Assembly (NCBI GenBank): GCA_902500205.1
Contig: GCA_902500205.1_4868.1
DNA: 64,000 nucleotides
From: Escherichia coli
GTDB lineage: Bacteria; Pseudomonadota; Gammaproteobacteria; Enterobacterales; Enterobacteriaceae
Direction: 5' to 3' (one strand)
The position numbers and the translations under genes are program-made. A model generated the notes under the pieces. That model made no database searches, had not been told where the DNA came from, and worked only from the letters and a program-made list of their open reading frames with translations. This document shows, piece by piece, positions 2,178 through 60,996 of this stretch (within the stretch, counting starts at the first letter, position 1; the number at the start of each line of letters is the position of its first letter).

Positions 2178-4439
2178 CTATCGCGCTTGTGGTAGGAAAA
2201 TGTTCGCGATTTGTCGTGCTGGTATGATATCTAACGCGGCGTTGACGATGCTGCCCTGTGACCAGGCACTTGCCCAGTTCTGCGCCCAGATAGACGCGTT
2301 GATTTTAGCCTGCGCGATACCGTTGGTACGCTCGTAAAGCGTGGCAGCGCCCAACACAGACATAAATTCACTGAACTTGTTATCATCATCAAACACACCA
2401 ATATCGGTTACAATCGGCATGTACATAACGCGTGACAGGTCACGAATAGTTACCTGTATATCACATGACAACGGCAGACCGTCAGCACGCCACCCTAACC
2501 CACCTGTACCAAACTGGAGACTCAAGTTAGTTACCATGGCATTACGCATGGAATAACGACCACGAGAATAACACTCCAGATAGAACGGGTGCGTAAACGA
2601 TTGTTTACCGGTTGCTAACGGGCAAACTGCCGCTAACCAGAACGACAACGGGACAATCAGATCCTGGAACACATCTAAGTCGTTACCCGACCAACAGCGA
2701 AGGGGAATGCTTAGCGAGATATCGTCACCTGAGGTGTCTGAGGAGTCCCACACTTCCGGGAAGTCAATCACTGACGAGTTGTACAGCGACATAATCCCTG
2801 ATAAATGCAAGAAATCGAGTGCGCCTGTAAAGGCGGACTTCAACCCAGTAATGAGACCATCGACTGCGTCGAAACCAGTCTTACCACCAGAGAGGTTTAC
2901 TTCTAAAGAACGTGCTTTCTGTGTGGCGGAGTTAACCGTGCCAGAGATTTCAGGTTCTTTGGTGGTGTTGGAGAACGAACGCCCTACGGTATCACGTCCA
3001 TCAACACGCCAAGTAATCCACTGCGAACCATTGCGTATCTCCGAAGCGATGTTCGAAGTTAACCCATCCATAGCGCCTTCTAAAATATCGATATAGTCTT
3101 TGAAGACGCTACCGACAGATTCTTTCTGGCCTTGGTCCATCCAGTTTTCAATCTTCCCAATGTCGAGATTATTCTCATCCATTGAGTTTGCTTCGGTCTG
3201 ACTTTTAGCAACCTGTGCCTGGTTCTTTTCAACCTGTGCCATACGCTCGGCAAGCTCTTTACGTTGCGCATCACCTTCGTTTTCGAAGTTTTCAGCTTTA
3301 CCTCCTTGTGACTGAGCATCCTGAAGGCTTCCGTTCATCCCTGCTACCAGTTCGTCTTCTTTGTTATCGACGTTTTCAAAACCGGCATCGTACCCTTTAC
3401 CGGCTTTGGCTACGTATTCAAGGTTACGTAAAGAAACCTCGTACTGCGCAGCTTTCTCCAAATGGGTTGTTGAGTACGTCGCTTCCAGATAGAAGTTTCG
3501 CAAACGACGAGCCATGTCCTCTTCGTTACTCGACTCTTTACGAATTTTATCGATGGTTTTCGCCTGGTAGTTGGCTAATGTTTGGTAGCGGTTAATCATT
3601 CGATAGATATCGAACTCACCATCAGCTGTCCAGATTTCTGGCAGCATGGAGTACCACTCTTTACGGTCGCCGTTGTACTTGTTAGCAGTACCGCCTTTCT
3701 CAGACCCATCTACAGCATTAGCAAGCTGGAAAGTCCCTAACACACCCGTTGGCACCAATCGGCGATAAACTAACTGGGTGTTGACCATATTCTGCACAGC
3801 GCGCAGATACAAGTGCATTGTCGGTTTCACGTAGTAGTAGCGAGAAGTCTGCTTGTTCAGCACCATCTTCAACATACGTGGTGTAATTAGAATAACCGCA
3901 AAGGCAACCGTACCTACTGCGGCCCATATTGCTGCGGCGGCAACATACGTCCCCATCGCACGCAACATACCAGGGTAGTCACCTGTGCGCGCCAGATACG
4001 CTAGGTTGGAATCGTACATATTCGCGAAGAATGCAGCGACCCCGATATATCGAGGTTTACCGAAACGACAATGAAGATAAAAACTGTTTTGGTTAATAGC
4101 TTCGTAATAGAAAGTCCCTAAACGATAGGAACCACGTTGGTCTTGACCTTTAACGTACTTTGAGTACGAGCCACGACCTGCATCAGGTTGTGCAAAAGCA
4201 CCTGTTGAACTCGGATCAGCAAACATCGTAAACTGCGGCGGCGCATTTAACGCTTGCGAACCACCCATCGTGGTATCTTCAAACGAGAGCATCGCGTTAG
4301 AGTAACGACGCAAACCCAGGAAGCGCTCATCGCGTTGTGCGGTTGTACCGCCAAACAGGCCGGTTACCCATCCTGAATCTTTTAGTTGTCTTGCTTCCAC
4401 GTAAAACCTCTCTGTAAGATGATTAGGGGGTGTTGCCAC
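2178..4439 (-). CDS. hypothetical large protein (753 aa) with coiled-coil region and one hydrophobic segment
   Basis: GTG start 9 nt downstream of giant gene stop; hydrophobic stretch TYVAAAAIWAAVGTVAFAVILI. Confidence 0.7.
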   Translation of the reverse strand: MATPPNHLTERFYVEARQLKDSGWVTGLFGGTTAQRDERFLGLRRYSNAMLSFEDTTMGGSQALNAPPQFTMFADPSSTGAFAQPDAGRGSYSKYVKGQDQRGSYRLGTFYYEAINQNSFYLHCRFGKPRYIGVAAFFANMYDSNLAYLARTGDYPGMLRAMGTYVAAAAIWAAVGTVAFAVILITPRMLKMVLNKQTSRYYYVKPTMHLYLRAVQNMVNTQLVYRRLVPTGVLGTFQLANAVDGSEKGGTANKYNGDRKEWYSMLPEIWTADGEFDIYRMINRYQTLANYQAKTIDKIRKESSNEEDMARRLRNFYLEATYSTTHLEKAAQYEVSLRNLEYVAKAGKGYDAGFENVDNKEDELVAGMNGSLQDAQSQGGKAENFENEGDAQRKELAERMAQVEKNQAQVAKSQTEANSMDENNLDIGKIENWMDQGQKESVGSVFKDYIDILEGAMDGLTSNIASEIRNGSQWITWRVDGRDTVGRSFSNTTKEPEISGTVNSATQKARSLEVNLSGGKTGFDAVDGLITGLKSAFTGALDFLHLSGIMSLYNSSVIDFPEVWDSSDTSGDDISLSIPLRCWSGNDLDVFQDLIVPLSFWLAAVCPLATGKQSFTHPFYLECYSRGRYSMRNAMVTNLSLQFGTGGLGWRADGLPLSCDIQVTIRDLSRVMYMPIVTDIGVFDDDNKFSEFMSVLGAATLYERTNGIAQAKINASIWAQNWASAWSQGSIVNAALDIIPARQIANIFLPQAR

Positions 4440-25665: not shown

Positions 25666-26541
25666 TTAGCGCATCTGGTTGGCCATCTGCTCGTCGGAGA
25701 CAGAGTTGTAGCCACCTGGGGTTGCGTTGACGTCCGGGTTGATACCATCGGTCTGCTGAGACGGAGTGAGCCACAGTTTGCGTTCGTAAGGACGCAGACC
25801 GTACAGCTTCATACGGTCCAGCTCTTTCGCAGCGGCCTGCATCGGACCCCAACCTGTCCATTGCTGGGAGGTAAAGGCGATTGACAGTTCGTTAATCTGC
25901 GGACCGGTGTTGGTTTCACGCTCACCGATATCCTGGCCAGCGGTTTCCGGAATCATGTTCGTTAACCACCACGCGTTCTGCGGTTTACGCTGATACGCAT
26001 CTGGCTCGATGAACAGCACGGTCATGCTGTACATATCCGGCAGGTGGTCAGGAACGTTCGGGTTGATTGCGGCCAGGCCTGGGTGACCAGTCTGGGGATC
26101 ACAAACACCGTAAACCAGCCACGCCCACAGCATGTTCTGGTACACCTTCCCGAGTTTATCCGGGGTGGTGAAGGTAACAGAGGACAGTGCTTCCGTTACC
26201 AGACCAGCTTCATACTGGGTACGGTTGTTACGACCCTGCTGAGTTTCAACAGCCGCATGGCTCAGGGTTTTATCCAGGCCAGTAATCTCGGAGTGAACCT
26301 CGATAAAGGACTTGATAGCCTGACGCCACATCTGCGGGTTCGGCATGTAATCCACCCAACGAGGGAATTCCATGACACGCGCAATGACGTTACGACGCAG
26401 ACGAGAGGCGTTAGTAACGAACTTGCCAACCTGTCCAACCGGGCCGTTTTGGCCCGAGGAGAACGCGTTGACCATATCGTACTGGCCGCCGTCGACGTGC
26501 AGACCCTGATCAGGCAAAATGAGACGATCTTTGATTGCCAT
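25666..26541 (-). CDS. tail tube protein candidate (291 aa)
   Basis: Directly downstream (3-nt gap) of sheath-sized gene on same strand; size typical of myovirus tube protein; assignment by order and size only. Confidence 0.7.
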   Translation of the reverse strand: MAIKDRLILPDQGLHVDGGQYDMVNAFSSGQNGPVGQVGKFVTNASRLRRNVIARVMEFPRWVDYMPNPQMWRQAIKSFIEVHSEITGLDKTLSHAAVETQQGRNNRTQYEAGLVTEALSSVTFTTPDKLGKVYQNMLWAWLVYGVCDPQTGHPGLAAINPNVPDHLPDMYSMTVLFIEPDAYQRKPQNAWWLTNMIPETAGQDIGERETNTGPQINELSIAFTSQQWTGWGPMQAAAKELDRMKLYGLRPYERKLWLTPSQQTDGINPDVNATPGGYNSVSDEQMANQMR

Positions 26542-42212: not shown

Positions 42213-42288
42213 AGGAAAGTGACGCAATTGGTAGCGTACCGGTCTCCAAAACCGGCTGTTTAGAGTTCGAGTCTCTACTTTCCTGCCA
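42213..42288 (+). tRNA. tRNA-Trp (anticodon CCA) with encoded 3-prime CCA
   Basis: Hand-folded cloverleaf: 7-bp acceptor AGGAAAG/CTTTCCT, D-arm ACGC/GCGT, anticodon stem CCGGT/ACCGG with loop CTCCAAA, T-arm TAGAG-TTCGAGT-CTCTA, discriminator G then CCA. Confidence 0.85.
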
Positions 42289-43636: not shown

Positions 43637-43706
43637 GGCTTTGTAGCTCAGGTAGGTAGAGCAGCCTCTTCGAGGAAGGTCGCCGGTTCGAGACCGGTCA
43701 AAGCAA
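43637..43706 (+). tRNA. degenerate tRNA-like element (possible pseudo-tRNA)
   Basis: Canonical D-arm (TAGCTCAGGTAGGTAGAGCA) and T-arm (CCGG-TTCGAGA-CCGG) but mismatched anticodon stem, 1-nt variable loop and G1-A72 mismatch. Confidence 0.3.
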
Positions 43707-56478: not shown

Positions 56479-58332
56479 ATGGTAAAAATCGTTGACTCTA
56501 ACAACAACGCTCAGCAGAACAACACTCAGACTCAAGACACCGCACCACTGGGCGGTCTGGGCAACGAGACTGTAAAAGTGCAAACTGCTGTGCCGGGTAC
56601 TTCTACTGTCAGCCAATTCGATAACGCATTTGGCATCCGCAACATCAGCACCTATGCAATGCACTTCGTCAACCTCCTGGACGAGCTGAAGAAAAGCAAC
56701 GAATACCTCAACGCGTTCCGCTGGGGCACCATCGCCGGCGTGGGTAACGAAATGGGTTCCGCGGCGTATGTCGCAGGCCAGTGGCAGGGCCACTGGCTGT
56801 ATGGTATCATCTTCTTTGAACGCGGTCAGTCTCTGCGTCTGAAAGAAACTACCAACAACGGCCAGGAAGACTACTACACCATCACTGAACTGTTCAACAA
56901 AGACGTGCTGGCAGTAGTACAGAAAAACATCATGGAAGCGCATGGTCTGACCAATGCGAACTTCATGATCATCAACTCCGTACCAGACCTGGGTAAAGTT
57001 CTGGATGCTGAGTGGGCACGTACTCTGATGGGTCAGATGATGATGGGCATCTTCGGTCGTATCGCAGGCTACCTGGGTACGCTGAACCTGCGTAAGCATG
57101 ACCGTTATCAGGCTGCAGTAATGCCGCTGGAAGATGGTGCGGTTGTGGATGCTAACGGCCACGCACAGCGTGCTGATTTCGCAATCACCGTTGAACACAG
57201 CCCAAGCAACGTAACCGACGCCACTCCGACTCTGCTGGACACCAATCAGGTACAGGTGTATCCGCGTGTATCCGGTACTGGTTTCGTCAATATGCGTTTC
57301 ACCGGTCAGAAGCCTGTCGTTAACGGCGTCTACGACCTGAAACAGCTGCAGGCTGAAATCGTAGTAAGTCTGATCGATTCTCAAACTGAAGGTGCAATGG
57401 CACCGTATGAACGTCAACTGCTGCTGCTGGCTGCATTTGCAGAAATCGCGGCAATCGGTGGCTGGCGTGACCTGTTTGTGAAACGTCTGAACAAACAAGA
57501 TCGCAAGTTCTCCCGTGTGGCAGAATACCTGTCCTGGGGCGCTGACGCTCGTCCTGACGTATCCAAAATCGACGGTAGCCGTGAAGCTATCGAAGGTTGC
57601 CTGGATATGTTCGCACCGCGTGAAGCAGCACTGGTAGTTAGCCATCGTGCCGGTAACGGCCTGGGTGGTCTGTCTACTTTGCTGTCTGAAATTGCGGTCG
57701 GTTACGACAACTCTCTGAAACAGCTGCTCGCTATTCTGAATTCCATGTCCCCGCGTGATCAGAACGGCGAAGTTGTTGCAGCGACCAGCTTCACTGCAGT
57801 ATTTGCTTCTGCACTGAAAGCACAGCTGGGCGATGCCTTCAATGGTACCATCCATTGCAGCCACATCGTGAAAGCAGCCGTACCGACTGTTTCCGGTGTT
57901 TACACCGGTACTGCACAGAAACGTAGCTTCCAGGATATGGACCTGATTTCCGTTGTTACCAAACTGGGTGATAACGCGAACGACGTCTATAGCTACCTGA
58001 ACGCACAGTCCTACAGCCACCGTGAACTGAACGAGCGTCAACAGCGTATCTACATGCTGAAACTGGCCGCTTCTCTGTTCGCATCCAAAGCACCGCAAGC
58101 TACCGGTGAATCTCTGGATATGGCTATCAACCCGATCTTCGGTAAATGCCTGCTGGACTTCGTCCGTAACAACTGCACCTGGTCTATGACTGGTGTAAAT
58201 GCCTACAACACGATGGCGACCTCTCTGTTCTTCAACAACGGTGGGGAAGACTTCACGCTGTCTGGCAACGGCCTGTCTGCAAGCGGTTCCGATTTCGGTC
58301 TGGGCGTGACTCTGAGCAACTTCAAACTGTAA
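56479..58332 (+). CDS. abundant 617-aa protein, candidate chimallin (phage-nucleus shell protein); major capsid protein not excluded
   Basis: Strongly host-optimised codons; conserved leader plus AAGGAAT RBS; directly upstream of a beta-prime-like gene, mirroring the phiKZ shell-protein/nvRNAP-subunit adjacency as I recall it. Confidence 0.8.
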   Translation: MVKIVDSNNNAQQNNTQTQDTAPLGGLGNETVKVQTAVPGTSTVSQFDNAFGIRNISTYAMHFVNLLDELKKSNEYLNAFRWGTIAGVGNEMGSAAYVAGQWQGHWLYGIIFFERGQSLRLKETTNNGQEDYYTITELFNKDVLAVVQKNIMEAHGLTNANFMIINSVPDLGKVLDAEWARTLMGQMMMGIFGRIAGYLGTLNLRKHDRYQAAVMPLEDGAVVDANGHAQRADFAITVEHSPSNVTDATPTLLDTNQVQVYPRVSGTGFVNMRFTGQKPVVNGVYDLKQLQAEIVVSLIDSQTEGAMAPYERQLLLLAAFAEIAAIGGWRDLFVKRLNKQDRKFSRVAEYLSWGADARPDVSKIDGSREAIEGCLDMFAPREAALVVSHRAGNGLGGLSTLLSEIAVGYDNSLKQLLAILNSMSPRDQNGEVVAATSFTAVFASALKAQLGDAFNGTIHCSHIVKAAVPTVSGVYTGTAQKRSFQDMDLISVVTKLGDNANDVYSYLNAQSYSHRELNERQQRIYMLKLAASLFASKAPQATGESLDMAINPIFGKCLLDFVRNNCTWSMTGVNAYNTMATSLFFNNGGEDFTLSGNGLSASGSDFGLGVTLSNFKL

Positions 58333-58360: not shown

Positions 58361-58400
58361 CGGACGGGGGCTAACGCCTCCGTCCTTCCCTCTTTTTTTG
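58361..58400 (+). terminator. intrinsic terminator
   Basis: GGACGG...CCGTCC hairpin followed by TTCCCTCTTTTTTTG. Confidence 0.55.
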
Positions 58401-58414
58401 TTGAGGTTGACAGT

Positions 58415-59923
58415 GTGAGAAAGGTACCAAAATTCTACGGAATATCCGGCCGGTTGGTTAGTCAGGATAACTATTTGTCCGATTTGCAAATAGAAGCTGC
58501 TGCCAAAGGTATTAAACCACCCACTATTATTAACGATGTCGCCGTTAACGGGGATGCGATCGAGGTTGCTGAACTTATCGATCGCATGGTACAGAACAGA
58601 ATCGTTGACGAAGAACTGAACTCTGCACCGATTTGTAGTTTGGATTGTCCGGCACCGATCGCGCATCGTTACAATCTCGGTTGTAAGTGTCCGACGTGTG
58701 GCTATGTTGTAACTGAACATCGAATTGAATCCGATGTCTGGTTACGTGCACCCGATGAAATGGGTAACTTCGTCAACCCACGATTCTGGGCAATGTTCAA
58801 TGCTTTCTTTAATAGCAAGTTGAAGAAGTTTGAACGTAACAAGGTCACTATCGAACGCGGTAATGACTTGATGATGTGGATGATTGACCCGTATTACCGT
58901 ATAGAAGAACCAGACGGTAAACGCGCACATGCTGTGAAACGTGTATTGGAAGAACATGGTTTCGTTCGTGGCTTGCGCAATCTGGTTGATAACCACGTTA
59001 GTATCTTTAACATCCTTACCACGCCAGAAGCCTGGAAGGAAATCTTCGCACCTAATCGGCATAACGCCGCTGAAGGTGAACGCTTACGTTTACAATGGAA
59101 GGAGCTATTCGAAACGCAACGCCATGCATTCTTCCCAAGACACTTACCGCTAATCTCCTCTAAGCTTATCGTTACTGAGGAAGGTCGTCGTGGTGTCATG
59201 GTAGACCCAGTGTTCACGGGTGCTATCGATGCGGTGAAAAATATCGCGTTACTTTATACGCGGCGTAAAGCGATCGAACCACGTTTTCTGATTAGTCGCG
59301 CTTTGAAAGCCAACCGTCAGTTAACGTACTTCCACATGGACTTCCGTCGTGAGTCTATGGAAGGTAAACCGGGTGACTATCGTGCGAAATTGGGTTCTAC
59401 CCATATCCCATTCGGTGGTCGTGCAACCATCTCACCTATCTCAGAACCACACGATGCCTGGAAGTTAAAAGCACCATGGCGTTGGATGGTTGGGTTGATG
59501 TCGACCCACATCGAGAACAAACTGCTACGACGGGGTTATTCGTCACGGCAATGTGAACGTATCGTTGCAAAAGCGGCAATGCAGTATGACCCGCTTGTAG
59601 ATGAAATCTTTAAAGAACTGATTCGTGAATCCCCAGGCGGTCTTGGGATCATGGTCATACCGCTACGTAACCCAACGCTGGTACAGTTGTCTATTCAAAC
59701 GCTGTACATCGATGAAGTTGTTACCGATGTTAACCAGTGTTCGCTGCGTATCTCTGACCGTGTGATCAAGATGGCTAACGGTTCGAAAAGAGCCCCATCG
59801 GACGGGAAACCTCTGATGCGTATTCTCCTGAAATGCTGGGAAACCCTAAAGCGTATCTACCAGAAATGGGGACGAAAGTCTGAAACAACAGATACGATGG
59901 CCTACGCTAAACAATACTGCTAA
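58415..59923 (+). CDS. RNAP beta-prime-like N-terminal subunit, 5-prime exon (frame reads on into candidate intron before stopping)
   Basis: Zinc-ribbon pattern CSLDCPAPIAHRYNLGCKCPTCG near residue 73-95; LRNPTLVQLSIQTLY resembles beta-prime NRAPTLHRLGIQAF; NADFDGD absent from this ORF. Confidence 0.75.
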   Translation: MRKVPKFYGISGRLVSQDNYLSDLQIEAAAKGIKPPTIINDVAVNGDAIEVAELIDRMVQNRIVDEELNSAPICSLDCPAPIAHRYNLGCKCPTCGYVVTEHRIESDVWLRAPDEMGNFVNPRFWAMFNAFFNSKLKKFERNKVTIERGNDLMMWMIDPYYRIEEPDGKRAHAVKRVLEEHGFVRGLRNLVDNHVSIFNILTTPEAWKEIFAPNRHNAAEGERLRLQWKELFETQRHAFFPRHLPLISSKLIVTEEGRRGVMVDPVFTGAIDAVKNIALLYTRRKAIEPRFLISRALKANRQLTYFHMDFRRESMEGKPGDYRAKLGSTHIPFGGRATISPISEPHDAWKLKAPWRWMVGLMSTHIENKLLRRGYSSRQCERIVAKAAMQYDPLVDEIFKELIRESPGGLGIMVIPLRNPTLVQLSIQTLYIDEVVTDVNQCSLRISDRVIKMANGSKRAPSDGKPLMRILLKCWETLKRIYQKWGRKSETTDTMAYAKQYC

Positions 59924-60126
59924 CGGTTGTGATAATGGGTAATCAGCAGCGAAGCCTCGTGAGAGGAACGTTCAACGACTATCGCTGAAATGCGAGTAGG
60001 GGTCCCAGTGGACTTCGAAGTGGGAGAACACCTAAGGCGATAGCTATGGTGAAGATATAGTCTGTGCCTTATCGAGAGATAAGGAGGGTGTCTTAGCACA
60101 CCTGCTGTATACGGAAACGGTATACG
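59762..60126 (+). mobile_element. candidate group I self-splicing intron (no internal ORF); boundaries approximate
   Basis: Elements resembling group I Q, R and S in order: AATCAGCAGC (59941), GTTCAACGACTATC (59970), GAAGATATAGTC (60051); GACTAT/ATAGTC can pair as P7; GNRA-capped hairpin CCTTATC-GAGA-GATAAGG (60067-60084). Confidence 0.6.
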
Positions 60127-60366
60127 GTGGACAAACAGGATTTCGATGGCGACCAGTTCCAGGTACGTTTGCCAGTCGATGAAACTGAGATGAAGTTGGC
60201 GCTCCAATTCCGTCCAGATAACGGCTTTATGTCTTCTACTGATGTGGACCGCGTAGAACACGGCATGGTTTTACATAACGAGCTAATCAGTATGCAGAAC
60301 CAGTTCCTTATTGAAGCAGATGAGGATGATGAAGAAGGCATTCCGTTGGAAGCGGTGATGGGCTAA
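60127..60366 (+). CDS. 3-prime exon of the beta-prime-like gene, carrying the catalytic DFDGD motif
   Basis: VDKQDFDGDQFQVRLP matches NADFDGDQMAVHVP; no ATG or credible RBS of its own (track start is GTG). Confidence 0.65.
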   Translation: MDKQDFDGDQFQVRLPVDETEMKLALQFRPDNGFMSSTDVDRVEHGMVLHNELISMQNQFLIEADEDDEEGIPLEAVMG

Positions 60367-60961: not shown

Positions 60962-60967
60962 AAAAAG

Positions 60968-60996
60968 ATGGGGCTTCGGCCCCTCTTTTTTTCTTC
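60968..60996 (+). terminator. intrinsic terminator
   Basis: GGGGC-TTCG-GCCCC followed by TCTTTTTTTCTTC. Confidence 0.6.

Follow-up and report, generated by a model that had tools for sequence, protein, structure and literature searches.

In the 64-kb window (the whole stretch of DNA analysed here, 64,000 nucleotides from a Seoulvirus phage with 99% identity to Escherichia phage vB_EcoM_EC001), a gene resembling the beta-prime subunit of RNA polymerase (RNAP) breaks off before the catalytic DFDGD motif, and the motif reappears in a second open reading frame (ORF) downstream. This raises the question of whether the two ORFs are separate genes or the exons of one gene that is split by a group I intron, as the original prediction held. 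All features described below lie on the + strand. The first ORF (502 aa, 58415-59923) contained the features ascribed to it, namely a Cys cluster (CSLDC...CKCPTC) and an NRAPTL-like block (RNPTL, at residue 418), and stopped without DFDGD. The motif VDKQDFDGDQF was read, as had been noted, in a short ORF about 200 nt on, which proved to be a 79-aa, GTG-started frame (60127-60366) 204 nt past the stop of the 502-aa ORF. Public records of EC001 and SPLA5c give two CDSs, and those of Proteus phage 7 and SaP7 give the two pieces and label the endonuclease ORF a hypothetical protein; none of these records annotates the intron.

A group I intron at the DFDGD codons

The whole window was scanned on both strands with the Rfam group I intron model RF00028. 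The sole intron match was located at 59763-60084 (69.4 bits against a gathering threshold of 50, E = 1.6e-15) and was full-length, spanning model positions 1-253 of 253. The corresponding gene was uninterrupted in SPN3US, SPFM4, SEGD1, MET_P1_082_240 and Erwinia phage Asesino, and alignment with these intron-less orthologues revealed one continuous gene, not two. The length gap between the window and the intron-less alleles at the insertion point was exactly 356 nt. The splice sites were set by the alignment with SPN3US together with the group I rules that U closes the 5' exon and G closes the intron. The intron thus delimited (59783-60138, 356 nt) begins with UCGAAAAG, ends with ACAAACAG and is absent from the intron-less alleles. 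Exon 1 (58415-59782) comprises 456 codons from a GTG start to ATG GCT AAC GGT and is collinear with nt 1-1368 of the SPN3US CDS, and exon 2 (60139-60366) comprises 75 codons plus the stop, begins with GAT TTC GAT GGC GAC (DFDGD) and is collinear with nt 1369-1596. The intron is inserted after the Gly codon and immediately before the first Asp codon in MANG/DFDGD, in agreement with the proposed insertion at a catalytic-site codon.

U59782 closes the 5' exon and forms a wobble pair with G59792 of the internal guide, and G60138 is the intron terminus. The expectation that the intron ends in G was correct, whereas the guessed junctions, after codon 449 (59761) and at 60127, were misplaced by 21 nt and 12 nt from 59782/59783 and 60138/60139, respectively. 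Splicing at 59761/60127 would give SDR/VDKQDFDGD, which was seen in no intron-less orthologue. The VDKQ head of the 79-aa ORF has a counterpart in no intron-less protein and, contrary to its original assignment as exon, is intron sequence. Likewise, the 47 codons read in the exon 1 frame beyond the 5' splice site (59783-59923, up to a TAA at 59921-59923) have no counterpart in intron-less proteins and are an artefactual, non-coding tail of the 502-aa ORF. By DNA comparison alone the boundary carries a 1-nt ambiguity, with the alternative 59782-60137 giving GGG instead of GGU, and it was settled only because of the group I U/G rules. The boundary placed by the aligner (59781/60138, a 1-nt equivalent placement) was dropped, as the intron would end in A.

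Excision of the 356 nt from the window generated one continuous conserved reading frame of 531 aa (KMANG/DFDGDQ), of which 530 residues were identical to SPN3US YP_009153317. The spliced protein aligned across the exon junction with phiKZ gp55/gp56.1 (PDB 7OGP chain A, E = 1.4e-38), right through KMANGDFDGDQ with cellular beta-prime, and with AR9 beta-prime at E = 2e-8. The SPN3US orthologue matched PHROG 2987 'RNA polymerase beta subunit' (E = 8e-180). A Pfam search of the spliced protein returned a weak, sub-threshold match to RNA_pol_Rpb1_2 (Rpb1 domain 2; 21.1 bits, cutoff 25.3), and none was returned for the two raw ORFs. The gene upstream of the RNAP gene was syntenic with a Vibrio phage gene annotated 'nuclear shell protein'. 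Judged by sequence, the interrupted gene is homologous to gp55 of phiKZ and encodes the N-terminal beta-prime subunit of the phage's non-virion RNAP, and its correct product would be a single 531-aa catalytic subunit. The junction-spanning tryptic peptide of the spliced product (MANG-DFDGDQFQVR region) would be MANGDFDGDQFQVR.

The RF00028 match, the intron-less orthologues and the restored frame bear out the predicted group I intron ahead of DFDGD. We place the probability at about 0.93 that 59783-60138 (356 nt) represents a group I intron with an IA-type architecture in the phiKZ gp55 homologue; the family match, the boundaries and the restored frame support it directly, and splicing as such is what they predict. 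Since the intron-bearing phages are cultured isolates, we infer that a functional DFDGD subunit must be made.

Fold and predicted splicing

The Q, R and S elements and the GNRA-capped hairpin reported earlier for the intervening DNA were located, and a P block and several GNRA hairpins were found as well. The core blocks are P AAAUGCUGGGAAA (59831-59843), Q AAUCAGCAGC (59941-59950), R GUUCAACGACUA (59970-59981) and S AAGAUAUAGUC (60052-60062). GNRA-capped hairpins carry GAAA at 59806-09, 59863-66, 59874-77 and 60114-17, GUGA at 59959-62 and GAGA at 60074-77. The MFE z-score of the intron was -3.4. Because plain MFE folding recovered the peripheral hairpins and missed the core, comparative analysis was used. 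All 94 pairs proposed in a hand-built P1-P9.2 fold, which included P7.1/P7.2, were canonical in the window. Across six related introns, 84.8% of cells were paired, compared with 36-45% in slid controls, double changes occurred in 52 pairs, and none of 500 shuffles matched this result, which supports the structure directly.

Pairing across the six introns reached 94% in P3, 100% in P4 and 100% in P7, with double changes in P3 and P7. The 5' strand of P7 (GACUA, 59977-59981) pairs with its 3' strand (UAGUC, 60058-60062, within the S element), as indicated by the RF00028 match, the hand-built fold and covariation; in two of the six introns, C-G replaces a U-A pair of this helix. Together with P3 (59823-28/60023-28), P7 forms the core pseudoknot with the predicted guanosine-binding site. 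Two regions are insertions relative to the Rfam model. One is an extension of P5 of about 80 nt (59851-59932), a three-way junction that bears two hairpins capped by GAAA, together with a GAAACAA strand and a GCUAAxCAAUAxxGCUAA loop, both of them conserved; its helices covary in five of the six aligned introns, and phiKZ is without part of it. The other comprises P7.1 (59982-59995) and P7.2 (59999-60016), the helices of which show double changes. Extra hairpins between P7 and P3' are typical of subgroup IA, and the intron is accordingly classed as IA; among the IA subgroups, its architecture suggests a putative IA2-like assignment.

The P1 hairpin (59780-59794, GAAAA loop) was read from the sequence, with exon nucleotides G59780, G59781 and U59782 pairing with guide nucleotides G59792, C59793 and C59794. 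It also holds U59783-A59791 and C59784-G59790, making 5 bp with these intron-internal pairs. The middle exon/guide pair, next to the wobble, is G-C in the window (GGU/GCC), C-G in Raoultella and EL (GCU/GGC) and A-U in Vibrio (GAU/GUC). The P1 drawn by Rfam (59767-75 with 59793-59801) includes non-canonical pairs and uses bases needed for a 9-bp P2 that covaries; its place was given to the GGU/GCC pairing, which sets the U-G wobble at the splice site. The exon part of P1, at 3 bp, is short, which counts against the intron reading.

The proposed mechanism follows standard group I chemistry. On folding of the pre-mRNA, GGU of the exon (59780-82) would base-pair with GCC of the internal guide (59792-94), so that the U-G wobble marks the splice site. 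A free guanosine docked in P7 would attack after U59782. The last intron nucleotide, G60138, would next move into the G-site, and the second attack, just behind this G, would come from the 3'-OH that exon 1 gained in the first step. Exon 2 UUUCGA (60141-46) may pair with UCGAAA (59783-88) as a P10 aligning helix. This P10 is flush with neither splice site, and the complementarity may be fortuitous. The ligated mRNA would encode all 531 aa of the subunit, its Mg-binding DFDGD loop intact, and unspliced RNA would yield a dead 502-aa product.

Alternatives to splicing at these junctions

The two ORFs could be separate genes that reflect a further natural split of beta-prime, with the intervening 200-350 nt as an intergenic lookalike or a dead, unexcised remnant. 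We consider this very improbable. Such a split would fall inside the metal-binding loop, exon 2 has no start codon at DFDGD and no ribosome-binding site, and close relatives with 98-99% identical exons have a single continuous gene. The ribozyme core is moreover intact and covarying, and the 47-codon tail of the first ORF and the VDKQ head of the second are absent from all intron-less proteins. What speaks for separate genes is that RNAP subunits of jumbo phages are naturally split (PMC7598289), that GenBank labels the two pieces 'beta subunit 1' and 'beta subunit 2', and that a full-length phiKZ transcriptome contained no spliced reads of the orthologous introns under its conditions (PMC10914365). 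The phiKZ enzyme in the PDB does, however, carry the gp55+gp56.1 fusion sequence.

With an equally small chance, the intron is real but depends on a helper (a phage or host protein, or the endonuclease or maturase of a co-infecting relative), or is cut at 59781/59782 and 60137/60138. Dependence on chaperones in vivo is common among group I introns, and the very short exon-guide pairing of P1 and the 1-nt ambiguity of the DNA comparison leave some room for this reading; however, phages with the ORF-less intron have been propagated alone. The shifted junctions would violate both the U-before-splice-site and the terminal-G rules, GGT occurs in all intron-bearing alleles against GGA in the intron-less Seoulvirus alleles, and the exon/guide pair beside the wobble covaries. 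A third possibility is that ribosomes cross the gap during translation, by bypassing or frameshifting in the manner of T4 gene 60. It has phage precedents but nothing specific in its favour, and its probability is negligible: 356 nt is much longer than the bypasses known, the intervening sequence is recognised by a ribozyme covariance model and folds like a ribozyme, and matching take-off and landing codons are absent.

Allele states and related introns

Returning to the group I intron, six of the 30 records listed carried the 356-nt form, three, with a span of about 3000 nt, had the endonuclease-bearing form, and 21 were intron-less. An ORF search of the 356 nt in the window detected the exon read-through and no other ORF, with no endonuclease gene, and no endonuclease remnant was found in this intron, in which the P1 loop is 5 nt long as against about 1 kb in the endonuclease-bearing relatives, where the ORF is located in that loop. 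Because it has no homing-endonuclease gene, the window intron would be unable to mobilise itself. The endonuclease of Proteus phage 7 and SaP7 (ORF of 286-332 aa) matched NUMOD1 (E = 8e-15) and PHROG 59 HNH (E = 6e-29). Seoulvirus is polymorphic, with three directly observed states: some alleles have no intron, some have the intron alone, and some have a diverged intron whose P1 loop contains an HNH/NUMOD1 gene. This pattern fits the usual cycle of intron gain, endonuclease loss and intron loss of mobile introns. The three alleles occur in one cultivable species infecting Salmonella, E. coli and Proteus, a natural set convenient for studying homing, co-conversion and intron-based competition among co-infecting jumbo phages.

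Proteus phage 7 and Salmonella phage SaP7 (species Seoulvirus SPN3US) share with the window the identical insertion site, the last 12 nt, the architecture and three linked exon changes. Their intron, however, measures 1404 nt. Its ribozyme part shares only about 78-84% identity with that of the window, against 98% for the exons, which makes it a lineage of its own from which the window intron does not immediately descend. The three changes are synonymous third-codon positions (59776 T, 59779 C and 59782 T within 59776-59782; GCT AAC GGT) that are linked to intron presence, intron-less alleles having GCA AAT GGA. All five intron-bearing alleles, from both lineages, differ at these sites from all four intron-less Seoulvirus alleles, and the remaining 71 variable exon sites are mosaic. 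The two intron lineages that share the three changes are about 20% diverged.

Introns of this type are already well known in phiKZ-type phages, and no new mechanism comes to light here. PMC10914365 credits the 2002 phiKZ genome paper with the prediction of the gp55/gp56 (HNH)/gp56.1 intron of phiKZ. This phiKZ intron resembles the window intron in interrupting the NADFDGD codons of the orthologous gene, directly downstream of the nuclear-shell gene, in its related core sequence and in scoring 75.6 bits with RF00028, above the threshold. In contrast to the window copy, it is inserted 3 nt upstream (N/ADFDGD versus NG/DFDGD), has a P1 loop containing a 334-aa HNH gene and, in the alignment, shows no clear P2 nor the second half of the P5 extension. 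Our literature search found no paper on an intron in SPN3US-like phages; in the figure of the SPN3US paper, introns are marked only in the scheme of virion-RNAP subunits (SPN3US, phiKZ and 201phi2-1). In PhiPA3, interference with a competitor by the gp210 intron endonuclease in a virion-RNAP gene was shown experimentally (Birkholz et al. 2024, PMC11620839). That group I intron likewise sits in an RNAP subunit gene of a nucleus-forming jumbo phage and is present or absent among relatives, but it concerns the virion RNAP, a different gene, and has an endonuclease, which the window copy is without. The classical phage IA2 introns are those of T4 td, nrdB and nrdD (sunY) and of the SPO1 and SP82 DNA polymerases with I-HmuI-type HNH nickases. 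The window intron, predicted to be self-splicing, is like them in its position at active-site codons of an essential nucleic-acid enzyme and in P7.1/P7.2; its ORF-bearing relatives have HNH+NUMOD endonucleases (I-HmuI_NUMOD-like match), and the flanking-marker linkage resembles co-conversion. It differs in that the host gene is a multisubunit RNAP and that the ORF of its relatives lies in the P1 loop. It is thus a well-defined, ORF-less addition to the introns that target RNAP genes of nucleus-forming phages.

Homologous introns passing RF00028, with homologous HNH genes in the same gene, were found in phiKZ, EL and Vibrio phage 2 TSL-2019. The Raoultella ZK_P1 intron also exceeded the threshold, and Klebsiella phiKp_32 and Photobacterium PDCC-1 matched by sequence. 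The phiKZ, EL and phiKp_32 introns contain an endonuclease gene. Those of phiKZ (gp56), EL and the Vibrio and Raoultella/Klebsiella phages lie within 3 nt of the window site, and the sites are staggered, between N and A in phiKZ, between A or G and D in the window, EL and Raoultella, and between D and F in the Vibrio and Photobacterium phages. In Raoultella ZK_P1 and Klebsiella phiKp_32, a 12-nt micro-exon (DFDG/D) is followed by a second intervening sequence (313 nt), for which Rfam gave no match even at E = 10. A tentative and rather doubtful reading is that the 15 nt encoding NADFDGD are a hot spot for homing throughout the family of nucleus-forming jumbo phages, used by one old intron/HNH lineage at three or more staggered sites, with Seoulvirus SPN3US displaying all three stages of the homing cycle and the linked exon changes perhaps selected for endonuclease immunity or splicing instead of arising by simple co-conversion. 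If so, this would provide an E. coli/Salmonella system for testing PhiPA3-type intron interference competition. The sequence before GATTTC occurs in two versions that differ by the three linked changes, GCAAATGGA and GCTAACGGT, each directly followed by GATTTC.

Interrupted polymerase gene and intron boundaries

A 502-aa ORF (58415-59923, + strand, GTG start) was followed after 204 nt by a 79-aa ORF (60127-60366, + strand, GTG start) reading VDKQDFDGDQF. In line with the original prediction of a beta-prime-like gene, the longer ORF contained an RNPTL block as well as a Cys cluster (CSLDC...CKCPTC) and stopped without the DFDGD motif. The region shared 99.2% identity with Escherichia phage vB_EcoM_EC001 and 98-99% with other Seoulvirus (SPN3US-like jumbo phages). 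The SPN3US gene is a single uninterrupted CDS of 1596 nt (YP_009153317, 'RNA polymerase beta subunit'), and the 1952-nt span of the two ORFs exceeds it by exactly 356 nt. Two placements of the insert, 1 nt apart, were compatible with the DNA comparison. In group I chemistry a U ends exon 1 and a G ends the intron, and 59783-60138 was chosen because it is the only placement with both. Exon 1 (58415-59782, + strand) thus ends ...ATG GCT AAC GGT, the intron (59783-60138, + strand) runs UCGAAAAG...ACAAACAG, and exon 2 (60139-60366, + strand) begins GAT TTC GAT GGC GAC. The comparison with an intron-less orthologue that had been proposed earlier, together with these group I rules, fixed the boundaries, and the junctions guessed at that time (59761/60127) proved wrong by 21 and 12 nt. 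The catalytic motif does lie in the short ORF about 200 nt downstream, but the VDKQ preceding it is intron and not exon; in-frame read-through of the intron accounts for VDKQ and for the final 47 codons of the '502-aa ORF'. After joining, the two exons specify a protein of 531 aa that matches its SPN3US counterpart at 530 residues, with the junction at ...SDRVIKMANG/DFDGDQFQVR.... The gene of Erwinia phage Asesino (81% protein identity), also without interruption, reads KMANGDFDGDQ. The insertion point is immediately 5' of the first catalytic Asp codon, in agreement with the predicted catalytic-site insertion.

The spliced protein matched chain A of PDB 7OGP (phiKZ non-virion RNAP, gp55 fused to gp56.1; E 1.4e-38) in an alignment that crossed the junction unbroken (KMANGDFDGDQFQV vs KAPNADFDGDQLNL), and also matched AR9 and cellular beta-prime subunits near the catalytic loop. 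The SPN3US orthologue was assigned to PHROG 2987 (E 8e-180), and the Pfam Rpb1 domain 2 match of the spliced protein was below the cutoff. The adjoining upstream 617-aa ORF (56479-58332, + strand; PHROG 8316, unknown function, E 6e-303) is likely a chimallin homologue, since Vibrio phage 2 TSL-2019 has, in the same position, a gene labelled 'nuclear shell protein'. Homology and this shell-gene neighbourhood identify the host gene as that for the N-terminal beta-prime subunit of a nucleus-forming phage's non-virion RNAP.

Two hairpins rich in G+C, each with a run of T residues behind it, bracket the RNAP gene together with its downstream neighbour, at 58361-58400 (+ strand; GGACGGGGGCTAACGCCTCCGTCC...TTTTTTT) and 60962-60995 (+ strand; GGGGCTTCGGCCCC TCTTTTTTT). 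Both look like intrinsic terminators, and only the second was detected by a simple scan.

Group I fold of the intervening sequence

The intervening DNA contained P (AAAUGCUGGGAAA), Q (AAUCAGCAGC), R (GUUCAACGACUA) and S (AAGAUAUAGUC) blocks and six GNRA-capped hairpins, bearing out the Q, R and S elements and GNRA hairpin proposed between the ORFs. When the entire 64-kb window was searched with every Rfam family at its curated threshold, a scan of the kind suggested with that proposal, three matches came back, namely RF00028 (group I catalytic intron) and two tRNAs elsewhere. The RF00028 match (59763-60084, + strand) spanned the whole model and scored 69.4 bits, where 50 is the threshold (E 1.6e-15). 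The intron was more stably folded than shuffled versions of the same sequence (z = -3.4).

Guided by related introns and by Rfam's alignment, we drew up a full secondary structure, and all 94 of its pairs were canonical in the window. P1 pairs exon GGU (59780-82) with guide GCC (59792-94) on the + strand, including the splice-site U-G wobble, two intron-internal pairs and a GAAAA loop. It is accompanied by P2 (9 bp, GAAA loop), P3 (59823-28 with 60023-28, + strand), P4, P5 with an extension of ~80 nt bearing two GAAA hairpins and conserved single strands, P6 (GUGA loop), P7 (59977-81 with 60058-62, + strand), P7.1, P7.2, P8, P9 (GAGA loop), P9.1 and P9.2 (GAAA loop). The presence of P7.1 and P7.2 marks the intron as subgroup IA type, and it may belong to IA2. 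A possible P10 helix would pair UCGAAA (59783-88) with UUUCGA (60141-46).

The fold was tested on six aligned introns of this one gene (window, Proteus phage 7, Raoultella ZK_P1, Vibrio 2 TSL-2019, EL and phiKZ) with endonuclease ORFs removed. Standard pairs filled 84.8% of cells, compared with 36-45% when 3' partners were slid by 1-3 columns, a comparison biased toward the fold by derivation of the structure from one aligned sequence and against it by a MAFFT alignment that is poor in variable hairpins. Changes on both sides occurred in 52 of the 94 pairs, and none of 500 shuffles equalled any of the five measures. The pair beside the wobble covaried with the exon codon (GGU/GCC in the window, GCU/GGC in Raoultella and EL, GAU/GUC in Vibrio), which independently supports the 5' splice site. 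The intron interpretation of the original prediction is supported: we put the probability that this group I intron is functional and splices itself, which we infer, at about 0.93.

As for the two tRNA matches, a tRNA-Trp with anticodon CCA (42213-42288, + strand) was found by Rfam (63.6 bits) as well as by ARAGORN. The weaker one (43637-43706, + strand; 36.4 bits), with a short anticodon loop in the alignment and not called by ARAGORN, is possibly an unusual tRNA or a degenerate one.

Allele states in Seoulvirus

Among 30 records listed of 38 matching, 21 were intron-less (e.g. SPN3US, the SPFM series and SEGD1), six had the 356-nt intron only (EC001, 1252, JN03, SPLA3, Lh1B and SPLA5c), and three (SaP7, Proteus phage 7 and SPFM1) had a ~3000-nt span with intron and endonuclease. 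The window intron carries no ORF of its own. The Proteus phage 7 / SaP7 insert of 1404 nt lies at the identical site and scored above the RF00028 threshold (51.9 bits). An ORF of 286-332 aa in its P1 loop has NUMOD1 in three repeats (E 8e-15) and matched PHROG 59 'HNH endonuclease' (E 6e-29) and, weakly, HNH_3. The window intron was considered as a deletion derivative of this sister intron and rejected as such, because ribozyme identity was only ~78-84% against 98% for the exons; judged by this divergence, the two introns represent separate lineages.

Comparison of nine alleles gave 74 variable exon sites. Three of them (59776, 59779 and 59782), each the third base of one of the last three exon 1 codons, separated 5/5 intron-bearing from 4/4 intron-less alleles through synonymous changes (GCT AAC GGT vs GCA AAT GGA); the other 71 were mosaic. 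This linkage held across the two intron lineages, which are ~20% diverged. The change at 59782 provides the obligatory exon-final U, and those at 59776 and 59779 may stem from co-conversion over a very short tract or confer immunity at the target site. Asesino, an intron-less Erwinia phage, likewise has AAC GGT.

Known systems and related introns in other jumbo phages

For phiKZ genes 56, 72 and 179, group I introns with HNH genes were predicted by the 2002 genome paper cited in PMC10914365, which itself saw no splicing in its own long-read phiKZ data. The PhiPA3 intron, whose endonuclease has been shown to act in the competition of phages that infect together (PMC11620839; review PMC12908238), interrupts a virion-RNAP gene, whereas the window intron interrupts the non-virion RNAP gene. 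That introns insert at conserved codons of the active site in essential phage genes is textbook knowledge (reviews PMC12908238 and PMC3984707). Literature searches found no paper describing the SPN3US-like phage intron, and the GenBank records examined list the gene pieces as separate proteins. The finding is therefore a correctly detected, unannotated member of a known intron class. Its value lies in an annotation fix, a three-state polymorphism inside one species, and clustered, staggered insertion sites around DFDGD.

Many other jumbo phages had, in the same gene, unannotated DNA recognisably similar to the intron core. In phiKZ (gp55 - gp56 HNH - gp56.1; RF00028 75.6 bits) the site is N/ADFDGD, with the insertion confirmed by the PDB sequence, and in EL (gp24 - gp25 - gp26) it is NA/DFDGD, the same as in the window. 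ORF-less introns occur at NAD/FDGD in Vibrio 2 TSL-2019 and Photobacterium PDCC-1 and at NA/DFDG in Raoultella ZK_P1; Klebsiella phiKp_32 has the Raoultella-type intron at NA/DFDG together with an HNH ORF. The ORF lay in the P1 loop in 4/4 endonuclease-bearing relatives (loci L003, 2869-4272; L009 of phiKp_32, 418-1847; L008, 1384-2800; L005, 669-2040); in phiKp_32 and EL a long additional stem (12 bp and ~18 bp, respectively) closes the loop and brings the two ends of the ORF close to each other. The four HNH proteins were mutually homologous (24-37% identity); EL gp25, which GenBank labels 'putative replication protein', shares 37% identity with the HNH protein of the phiKp_32 intron. By homology, these constitute a single old intron/endonuclease family targeting catalytic-loop codons.

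In Raoultella VB_ZK_P1 and Klebsiella phiKp_32, the first intron is followed by a 12-nt micro-exon, GATTTTGACGGT (DFDG), and a second intervening sequence of ~313 nt that ends ...TAATGATG before GAT ACC ATG. This region lies at 2848-3172 of the Raoultella locus L006 (PV662128 ~26200-26524) and at LC768500 15959-16271 in phiKp_32 (L009). The second intervening sequence gave zero Rfam matches up to E 10, and ~30% of it resembled unannotated stretches of Aeromonas jumbo phages (CF8, ZPAH34, PS1/PS2 and AhC3_1); it may be an intron type missed by the RF00028 model.
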